In this document: in pieces, positions 34,101 through 37,100 of the stretch
Position numbering within the stretch: position 1 is the stretch's first letter
Layout of the letters: each line of letters starts with the position of its first letter
NCBI GenBank assembly: GCA_965655095.1
Contig: OZ296648.1
Span: 148,490,001-148,554,000 of the forward strand
Direction: 5' to 3'
DNA from: Haplodiscus bocki
Lineage: Eukaryota
DNA: 64,000 nucleotides
The notes under the pieces: generated by a model
Told to the model about the DNA's origin: nothing
The model's input: only the letters and a program-made list of their open reading frames with translations
Databases searched by the model: none
Position numbers and translations under genes: made by a program

Positions 34101-37100
34101 ACAATAAATTTCAACAGTTTATTTGTTTTTGAAGAATGTGACAATTAACAAACATCATTTACAAGTATTGAGAAAGAAAGTTATCACACAAAACTTGTAG
34201 GAAGAGAGGTAGATACAGACAGTATTTTGTTATTGTGTAAAGTCTCGCGCACTAAAATCTCCATAATCTCGACGTGAGATTTTAAGAGTTTTTCAATCTC
34301 CCCTACTCTGATGTTTACAACTCCTCTACGTGTGAAGTTGTCTGCGAATCCCGATCGTGTGAAGAGTTTCAATTGGATGTATGAGCGATTGAAATTTCCT
34401 CTATCATATGCGGTGAGAGATGCACACACTTTTCGTCTGGCTGTTTCGCATAACTCCCAGAACTTGTCACAACTTTCTCGGTCCTCCAGGGGGGTTGGAT
34501 AGTTTGCCAACTGGAATTGTCTTGTTGTACCCATTTCTTCCCTCTTCAAGGACTCTTGCGATTCCAGAAAATTCAAGAACCACTTCTTGGCTTAACCAAG
34601 AACTTCATCAAGGGAAGATAGAACTCTCCTCATTTCCCAAATCGAAAGAATTATCAACTGATGAAACTTCATCTGTCCCATATTCTCTTTGAATATTTTC
34701 ACGTGAACCCAATTAGTTGGAGCGTTCCCTGAAACTTCAACGTTGGGAAGTGAAATTCTCAAAACTCTTTTTGGTACACAGGAGAAGTCCCAGCATTTCT
34801 GTGATGACTCTGCATCTGCTAAAAATCCTTTCTGACGATATTTGTCCAGCACAGAAGTTCCAAATGTTGTCTTGACTTCAGTATTATCCATCATGGAGGA
34901 AATTGTCGGTGAGTTTTCACTCAAGAGGTCCTCGAAACATTGAAACAAGTTGGTAGAATAGTTTGGATTGTTGTTCGGAAATGTAGCACTCGAGAAGTCT
35001 AGTGATGATAGTTCCGGATTTTCTTTATTTGCTCGACGTTCGTTTTCGTTGTTTTTCTGTGAATTTGTAAGTTTCCTTTTCATTGATAAATTCAACTTTT
35101 CAAGTTTCCAGTGAATATAGAACAATATTGTTTCTGTAAGTTTTCAGCTCGTAATGATTGCGAAAAGTCCTGGAAGAGAAAGTCTTTGTCCAACCAATGG
35201 AGTAGGGATTGCTTTTCTCAACAGCGATACGTCAACGACTCCGATCGGGTGCAACGACCTTACGGTGAACGCTTTTAATTCCCGGTCCGCCGATTACTAG
35301 CTCCCGTGGCGCCGCGGATACGACCGACGGCCGGATTCACTTTTCACTCCGTCCGCGCAGGTTCGAATCCCGCTGACTGGTCCTCTTCTTTCCCCCCCCC
35401 TGTTCTGCTCACTCTATACTACTGCTATACAATCGTTTGAAACAGGTTTTCGCTCTTTAGTGGGCGTCTGTTTTGCAATAGTGCTAGATGAAATTATAAT
35501 TCGGTCAATGAGTTCGAACACGTTGAAACGCAAGGGAAAATAAAGAAAATCGAATGATGGAGGCGCTAGCAATTAGTAAAAAACAATCAGTTTTCTCGGC
35601 GTGAAATATGGTTCAGTGATATATGAATTGATTACCGGCTCAACTGGCTAAAAGTTAGTTTTTCTCAAGAAGTAGTCTATATAGACGTTAACGAGCTGTT
35701 CATCGAACTCGAACAAAAATTATTAACTTTGTGGCTGCAGAGTTCGTCTGTACTGGACCGGGCAAAATTGTTTGGAATGACGTTCATTGAAAAGATTTAG
35801 CTCTAGTGTTCGTTGTTTGTATGCTTCAACAAAGCATTCAATTACCTTGTCGAGTTTCGAAATTTTTCTTACGTTGTTCAAAACCTTCCTACACGAATGT
35901 TTCTCCGGAACGAGTTTTTTGTATACCAGAGACAAGTGAACTTGATATAACCCAGTTCATCGATGGTGCGGAAACACAGCTTTGAGTTGGTCAGCGAAAA
36001 TATCTTTGAAACACCAATAAAAATGCAGCTTTTTCTTCAAGCTTTATCTGGAAGAACCAACTGAAGCGGAAGAAACTACCATTTTGATCAATTCAAGAGT
36101 TGAGAAGATTGATACGCTTTCTGGACACTGTTGCAAATTTTGACTGTTGCTCCATGATATGTTTTCTTCCAACCCCGATTTTTTTCCCGACTGAGGCGAC
36201 GGAAGAAAACATATCATGGAGCAACAGTCAAAGTTTGCAACAGTGTCCAGAAAGCGTATCAATCTTTAAAATTCAAACGAAATGATAATACAAACAGGAT
36301 AACCGGCTGCCTCCGGGACATTTCCGCCCCCCCCCCCCCCCAACTTTGTTAACAACGCGTTTTGAGGAAAAATTACGCTGCTGTATGCGATCTATATCCT
36401 TTTCGCTACTTTCCGAATTTTTCTAGAAAAAATTCGGAAATTTTTTCAAATAACCCTGAGTTTTGGTTGCAAAAAGGCCTTGTTAAAAAATAATACCATT
36501 TTATCCGCATTCAACATCAAAATTGCTGCTTTTTCCGATTATCAAAACTTTCTCTTTTTTTGCAAATCGAGCAAGTGCTTACACTGAAAAACCCAACTTT
36601 CATACGTTTTTAATAAACCCTACTATTTCATTCGCATTTGTTGGACTTCGTTTGTAAAAGTTTTCAAACTTTCAAAATTAATATTATCTGATGCAGTTGG
36701 CAAGTAAACGTAGACGCAAACGTTGAGTGCATGATTTTCCACCATGAAATATAGTGGAAAATAAAAATCGACAGCATTAAAGTAACACTTTAGCTAGCGT
36801 TGATGAAAGTTCAAATTCTCCTAAGGGCGTTGAAGAAATCTTCTAACACAACTGTCCTTCTCGGCATTGGTTATTATTCGAGCGTTCTCAATTCCAACCA
36901 AAGATCAGCCTAACTTTGGGTATGCATTCAACTCTTCTCCGGAAGGACTAAGAAAAAACACCATTCCGCTGAAATTCTCCTCCGATACATTTTTGAACAG
37001 ATTAACGACTGATTTCCATTTTGAGCATTGAGACTTTTCCTTTCCTGGCCGCCTTTTGAACAGCTGCAGTCGCATTCTTACCACAAGTTGTTCCAAGTCC

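Follow-up and report, generated by a model that had tools for sequence, protein, structure and literature searches.

Pol III-type A- and B-box motifs in both terminal inverted repeats of a Polinton from Haplodiscus bocki: a possible host TFIIIC site

TRIMp3 elements, i.e. Helenus (tRNA-like), Cassandra and Ajax (5S-like), carry a small-RNA-derived RNA polymerase III (Pol III) promoter in both terminal repeats and encode no working tRNA (PMC10886601). They are short non-autonomous LTR retroelements with direct repeats, and their promoter makes the transposition RNA (PMC10886601). The element described here is, in contrast, a Polinton with inverted repeats and an outward-facing promoter, which replicates as DNA and needs no such RNA. 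Inverted repeats around a DNA-polymerase element stand in place of the LTRs, the PBS and the retrotransposition that characterise TRIMp3, and the TRGCY motif of Helenus (PMC10886601) is only partly matched by the Polinton cassette (TGGCG).

In type 2 Pol III promoters the A box, with the consensus TNGNNNANNNG, is separated from the B box by 31-93 bp, and TFIIIC binding rests mainly on the B box, with nanomolar affinity as compared to micromolar for the A box (PMC11724288). B-box sites that lack Pol III serve as barriers and insulators (PMC12409998, PMC10530723). Like our locus, ETC sites and tRNA-gene barriers combine a strong B box with an A box that is weak or dispensable, and require no RNA product; ETC sites are host loci defined by ChIP, whereas the Polinton site is known from its sequence (PMC12409998, PMC10530723). 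No ETC site in a viral or transposon TIR was found described in the open-access literature. Internal A and B boxes within a linear DNA virus genome are also found in adenovirus VA, EBER and BocaSR, which differ in being single-copy genes of structured RNAs, BocaSR having 140 nt and a predicted VA-like fold (PMC8242256). In the Polinton each TIR has the boxes, and neither a conserved terminator nor a fold goes with them. tRNA-derived SINE heads likewise combine a tRNA-like 5' part containing both boxes with a decayed cloverleaf, possibly at high copy number (PMC10886601); the Polinton cassette differs in that neither a tail nor a target duplication of its own is seen and in that many of its high-depth copies share a flank upstream of +1.

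Polinton/Maverick elements are characterised by (AGT)2//(ACT)2 ends, a 6-bp duplication and a size of ~13-25 kb (PMC10748475, PMC8097293), AGTAGT/ACTACT being the commonest end motif of vertebrate Mavericks (PMC8097293). Besides TIR length, the 6-bp ends are the only TIR features described in the accessible portions of these two papers, and nematode Polinton TIRs are reportedly highly conserved while the polymerase differs (PMC10748475). Term searches of PMC10748475, PMC8502044, PMC11131425 and PMC8097293 find no mention of Pol III boxes in TIRs. The word 'tRNA' occurs 0 times in the main text of PMC8097293 and PMC10748475, and its sole mention across the four papers refers to tRNA genes on maps of other viruses. 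More generally, no description of Pol III boxes in Polinton TIRs was found in the open-access literature, as distinct from Repbase and subscription papers.

The window, i.e. the whole 64-kb stretch of DNA analysed here, harbours one such element with the following limits:

17795..35423, no strand assigned: Polinton/Maverick element, 17.6 kb, with intact-looking core ORFs; based on TIRs, termini, target duplication, Pfam matches and motifs
17789..17794, plus strand: left 6-bp target-site duplication GCTATA, from the sequence
35424..35429, plus strand: right 6-bp target-site duplication GCTATA, from the sequence; a contig of the public run X5 departs from the window exactly at 35423
17795..17953, minus strand: left TIR, 159 bp, mirroring the right TIR, from the TIR comparison
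35267..35423, plus strand: right TIR, 157 bp, 59% GC, with a CpG observed/expected ratio (o/e) of 1.39 as compared to 0.92 in the interior

The element ends in AGTAGT/ACTACT, and its TIRs, 6-bp duplication, (AGT)2//(ACT)2 ends, TIR length and overall size of 17.6 kb all agree with described Polintons; internal boxes are what sets its TIRs apart. The left and right TIRs differ by 0 substitutions, the sole difference being a 2-nt length change at the T/C tract. The presence of boxes in both TIRs therefore represents one event, and two independent captures of the cassette are ruled out.

The core genes of Polintons are also present, all of them on the minus strand and directed away from the right TIR, with the gene block beginning just inside it:

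21376..25641, minus strand: protein-primed DNA polymerase B with N-terminal zinc fingers; Exo and Pol motifs by pattern, weak zinc-finger matches
27664..28068, minus strand: predicted adenain-like protease; His/Asp/Gln/Cys motifs, 27% match in the viral contig L001
28061..29302, minus strand: predicted major capsid protein (double jelly-roll); Atlas look-alikes at 0.98
30536..31486, minus strand: rve integrase; PF00665, E 2.8e-10
32171..32923, minus strand: A32-like packaging ATPase (Pox_A32); PF04665, E 4.9e-05, Walker A by pattern

The integrase and the ATPase score over the cut-off of PF00665 and PF04665, respectively, as expected for a Polinton/Maverick; the motif in the ATPase is what we take to be Walker A. 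The polymerase ORF has no Pfam match and no PDB polymerase match in sequence searches. It matches the viral contigs L001, L007 and L008, and its five Exo/Pol motifs, which we take to be those of PolB, indicate a protein-primed polymerase. The His/Asp/Gln/Cys motifs of the ORF at 27664..28068 are presumably those of a protease. The capsid ORF has no Pfam or PDB match by sequence and reaches an Atlas feature score of 0.98 to clusters in which PF21738 is found on 22-30% of members. At 90% identity its own protein cluster comprises 27 members, and sister clusters contain 17 and 24. The capsid clusters of sister families stand at 78%, 67% and 56% identity, and several capsid clusters of this size (17-27 members) are situated on long contigs. 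The polymerase carries C2H2-like zinc fingers at its N-terminus and a weak endonuclease-like insert at residues 932-995 (PHROG 13076, E 0.0018), which recalls the endonuclease inserts of nematode pPolB2 (PMC10748475).

Several further repeats were observed. Within the element, ~3.4 kb (17954-21375) lack any ATG ORF of at least 80 aa. This stretch includes an A/G-rich minisatellite (18890-20640; 21-bp period with 10/11-bp subunits, ~84 copies), which is situated between the 3' end of the polymerase and the left TIR and has an extreme strand skew, with GC skew values of up to 0.77. It also includes a 102-bp tandem repeat of 4.7 copies (20672-21147), one copy of which holds a loose B-box-like word at 21015, probably by chance. 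Elsewhere in the window, old long inverted arms of 72-75% identity (37641-38407 and 45011-45950) surround ~6.6 kb and probably represent a second TIR element that has decayed. A near-perfect hairpin of 162 bp at 36105-36266, with 66-nt arms (98%), is MITE-like, and a 2142-bp tandem repeat with at least 4 full copies of 96-98% identity covers 54263-62826 and beyond, without an Rfam match.

The promoter-like motifs lie within the TIRs:

35307..35317, plus strand: A-box-like motif TGGCGCCGCGG, without the consensus A7 (tRNA A14)
17903..17913, minus strand: mirror of the A-box-like motif, from the sequence
35360..35370, plus strand: perfect B box GGTTCGAATCC, 53 nt from the terminus; its T-arm context is imperfect
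17850..17860, minus strand: mirror of the B box, from the sequence
35341..35344, plus strand: T4, polymorphic and not a conserved terminator (C at 35344 in 87% of the depth in X3 and in 24% in X5)
35273..35280, plus strand: AT-rich TTTTAATT, ~27-20 nt upstream of the predicted start

In each TIR both boxes and the T4 are oriented toward the end of the element, in full agreement with the positions and direction given in the initial annotation. That annotation had also proposed a type 2 promoter with the boxes about 50 nt apart. The layout, the B box and the spacing bear this out: GGTTCGAATCC conforms to the B-box consensus and the gap between the boxes, although only 42 nt (53 nt from start to start), falls inside the range of 31-93 bp. 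The A box does so only in part, as TGGCGCCGCGG agrees with T1, G3 and G11 of TNGNNNANNNG but not with A7, i.e. with 3 of the 4 fixed positions. Apart from the B box at 35360-35370 and its mirror, the 64-kb window contains no strict B box. A strict B box arises in 18 of 20,000 dinucleotide shuffles of the TIR (0.09%) and a loose one in 933 (4.7%), while a tight pair of A and B boxes was found in 0 of 20,000 and a loose A box in 49% of the shuffles. When a B box is given, 0.16% of the shuffles have a tight and 0.95% a loose A-like motif at a distance of 25-60 nt upstream; these figures are optimistic because the A patterns were relaxed to fit the observed motif. The AT-rich TTTTAATT is a possible footprint of TFIIIB/TBP, suggested post hoc from its position. 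A short imperfect direct repeat (35280-35292 and 35345-35358) precedes the A box and the B box.

The cassette does not form a tRNA gene, as had been noted before: the T stem pairs at 4 of 5 positions, the acceptor stem at only 3 of 7, ARAGORN finds 0 tRNAs and Rfam returns no tRNA match for the TIR at E <= 10. At gathering score there are 0 Rfam matches in the window, and the TIR has only unrelated matches (E 0.56-8.5). The T-arm may resemble that of a eukaryotic tRNA-Ser, and the initial annotation had called it tRNA-Ser-like. This could not be corroborated by BLAST of the cassette against phage sequences, in which all matches, including those to tRNAs, have E >= 0.8. Among the best 40 of 165 records, the weak matches to 35340-35385 lie mostly on tRNA genes, and the annotated isotypes are Arg, Gln, Asn, Phe, Tyr, Met, Pro, 'other' and pseudo, with no Ser. 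A specific tRNA-Ser origin was not taken as demonstrated.

Relatives of the right end were analysed in contigs of 4 of 16 public runs (X3, X5, X7 and X12), aligned to 34400-35600 at 80% likeness. The 16 runs listed include coral-associated ones, which together with the type of element point to an animal host, and none of RNA, which has no bearing on expression. A right-end contig of X7 spans 35120-35347, has the T4 and ends before the B box; a Polinton-end piece of X5 spans 35210-35345; and a left-TIR contig of X12 covers 35267-35345 with the left sub-TIR attached. A second X12 contig over 35348-35399 continues into a variant terminus, with 2 of its 3 differences unplaced. The A-box half is thus present on Polinton-end contigs of X5, X7 and X12, so that the cassette is a property of the family rather than a private insertion; its TIR form is seen in all four runs. 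In X12 the TIR pieces diverge by 5.8-7.6% and the interior by 3.9-8.8%, and therefore no extra constraint on the TIR is visible. The listed substitutions in the shared block, among 40 of 458 differences, all lie outside both boxes (5 of 5), which is not significant (P = 0.33).

Protein-led scans of viral contigs recovered only L001, L007 and L008, at 27-33% identity. L001 (TIRs 1-277 and 12050-12321) and L008 (TIRs 1-123 and 15475-15597) are apparently complete linear Polinton-like contigs with TIRs of their own, while L007 has no TIR in its available stretch. A B box is found in 0 of 2, i.e. in the TIRs of neither L001 nor L008, and a pan-Polinton feature was rejected on this weak test. The box pattern gave 0 matches in viral contigs, 2 in bacterial MAGs and 3 in metagenome contigs, the latter with 59-69% GC and no TIR likeness past the seed, and taken as chance. 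Plasmids contain no match to the Polinton integrase, and the supplement of PMC10748475 none to five short motifs.

In one of the runs, X3, part of the TIR is probably common to many more copies:

35288..35400, plus strand: block probably common to many more copies in X3; limits approximate, from loose ends and bin depths

The summed X3 depth reaches 256,034 and 138,029 over 35302-35383 as compared to 3,070-12,011 in the interior bins, corresponding to 42x and 23x the interior median over the core bins; summed contig depth is not equal to copy number and overlap of short contigs can inflate it, where an 11-21-fold inflation would be needed to erase the excess over two TIRs and the ceiling is 31. 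Depth per contig over the core is 959-3,175 as compared to 126. In the last TIR bin (35384-35424) the summed depth drops to 24,039, with a mean depth 4x that of the interior, and in the flank to ~139. Over the core, the excess is 3-4x in X5 and absent in X7 and X12; filters can hide contigs. The block, with a CpG o/e of 1.54, is thus probably shared with many more copies, be it other TIRs or a host repeat. X3 depth is low at 35272, so that TTTTAATT lies outside the widely shared block.

The loose ends of the X3 contigs form groups that are majority cells with agreement of 0.77-0.85, 17 of 194 rows being listed. Among these, 22 contigs have one common upstream flank at 35288 (agreement 0.85). 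SINE copies start at +1, and this shared flank therefore argues against SINE copies; the other ~46 kb of the window also contain no free copy of the cassette. A group of 28 contigs, again among the 17 of 194 rows, joins other sequence at 35345 through a flank similar to that at 35288, and two single X5 contigs join other sequence at 35358 and 35361, although in a metagenome these may stem from other organisms. Some relatives therefore keep the B-box side without the A-box side. The loose ends in X3 point to forms that have the segment between the direct repeats and others that lack it, so that the A-box segment may come and go as a whole. In a group of 17 contigs the B box is altered only at its free N position while its T-stem partner changes (agreement 0.83), which fits a DNA motif better than an RNA arm.

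We tentatively favour, with somewhat less than even confidence, an inherited tRNA- or SINE-derived cassette that would act as a host TFIIIC site rather than as a small-RNA gene. A tRNA-derived (SINE-type) Pol III promoter would have entered the TIR of an ancestral Polinton and then been copied to the second end by TIR homogenisation. Such homogenisation is expected of linear genomes with protein-primed, adenovirus-type replication. TFIIIC would dock mainly via the perfect B box of each TIR, and the docked TIR may benefit the element as a chromatin barrier or nucleosome-free zone that separates the viral genes from the host flank. A DNA docking site 53 nt inside each end would agree with the strong B box, the decayed A box and the missing fixed terminator, and the one at the right end would stand back to back with the minus-strand gene block. 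Among the points against docking are the similar divergence of TIR and interior in X12, the TIRs of L001 and L008 without a B box, and the fact that a neutral passenger in a homogenised TIR would look much alike.

Such a passenger, i.e. the head of a SINE or of another tRNA-derived host repeat that was caught in the ancestral TIR and copied to both ends without benefit, is a close rival and nearly as likely as the TFIIIC site. The initial annotation had regarded a captured SINE fragment as the outcome that would overturn its proposal, and in part this is what the data indicate, as the core is common to far more copies in X3 (42x and 23x the interior median; 959-3,175 versus 126 per contig). 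The degenerate A box, the lack of a conserved terminator, the equal divergence of TIR and interior in X12 and the distant TIRs without a B box (L001, L008) point the same way, and for TRIMp3 the proposed origin is a SINE that inserted into one terminal repeat and was then copied to the other (PMC10886601). On the other hand, the high-depth block does not begin at the predicted +1 with unrelated flanks, free copies are absent from the rest of the window, the B box is perfect in a CpG-rich block, and the excess is only 3-4x in X5, absent in X7 and X12 and, in X3, open to inflation by overlap. The same block may be explained in the opposite direction if the cassette is an old Polinton module and the X3 copies stem from TIRs of sister families, from non-autonomous derivatives or from a new SINE-like family that arose from the TIR. 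This is unlikely. It agrees with an excess mainly in one of four runs when the TIR form occurs in all four, with the several capsid clusters of 17-27 members on long contigs, with a shared block that has common flanks and extends to the C tract near the terminus, and with the conservation of nematode Polinton TIRs next to differing polymerases (PMC10748475). It agrees less well with the last bin (35384-35424), where the mean depth is only 4x interior, although poly-C can break contigs. As it concerns origin, it can be combined with TFIIIC docking.

A functional small RNA like VA, EBER or BocaSR, of ~45 nt if it ends at the T4 or ~90 nt if it reads on to the following T run, which would help replication or block host RNA defence, is quite unlikely. 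The order and spacing of the boxes permit transcription, bocavirus depends on a Pol III RNA with both boxes to replicate its DNA (PMC8242256), and the T4 is intact in the window copy and in the X7 contig. However, the T4 is broken by a C at 35344, which accounts for 87% of the depth in X3 and 24% in X5. The T run that follows is a T3 on the right side and a T4 on the left, with 35391 being C in 64% of X3 depth. Moreover, A7 is missing from the A box, the predicted folds of four candidate transcripts do not surpass those of shuffled sequences (z -0.36 to +0.54) and the cassette matches no Rfam family. With the T4 broken in most X3 depth, no conserved next terminator and no fold, a VA- or BocaSR-like RNA appears unlikely from the sequence, and the ~45-nt RNA ended by T4 that had been proposed for this site was rejected as a conserved product. 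Finally, a GC- and CpG-rich TIR could hold a B-box-like 11-mer by chance and have an A box read into it. This seems very unlikely to us. Loose B and A boxes are indeed frequent in TIR shuffles (4.7% and 49%), many TIRs are scanned genome-wide and no tRNA match is significant. Against this stand the rarity of the strict B box (0.09%) and of the tight pair (0 of 20,000), the T stem with 4 of 5 pairs, the weak phage matches to 35340-35385 that lie mostly on tRNA genes among the best 40 of 165, and the rise of X3 depth that brackets the cassette.

The feature itself is real; its function is a prediction from sequence. More doubtful than TFIIIC docking as such is that this Polinton lineage uses TIR TFIIIC sites as a cis-element, either for insulation of the provirus from silencing by the host or as the host-factor part of the replication origin. 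If this is true, a Polinton TIR would for the first time have an internal motif with an assigned function. The element would then represent a counterpart of TRIMp3 among DNA viruses with inverted repeats, and it may have seeded a high-copy family in one host. Even as a relic, the cassette would still help to trace the exchange of repeats between a virus-like element and a SINE-like family of the host. A TFIIIC site in the TIR would provide a concrete host factor through which integrated Polintons remain expressible or fire their origins. Together with TRIMp3, such a site would suggest that Pol III boxes have been placed at the ends of mobile elements time and again.
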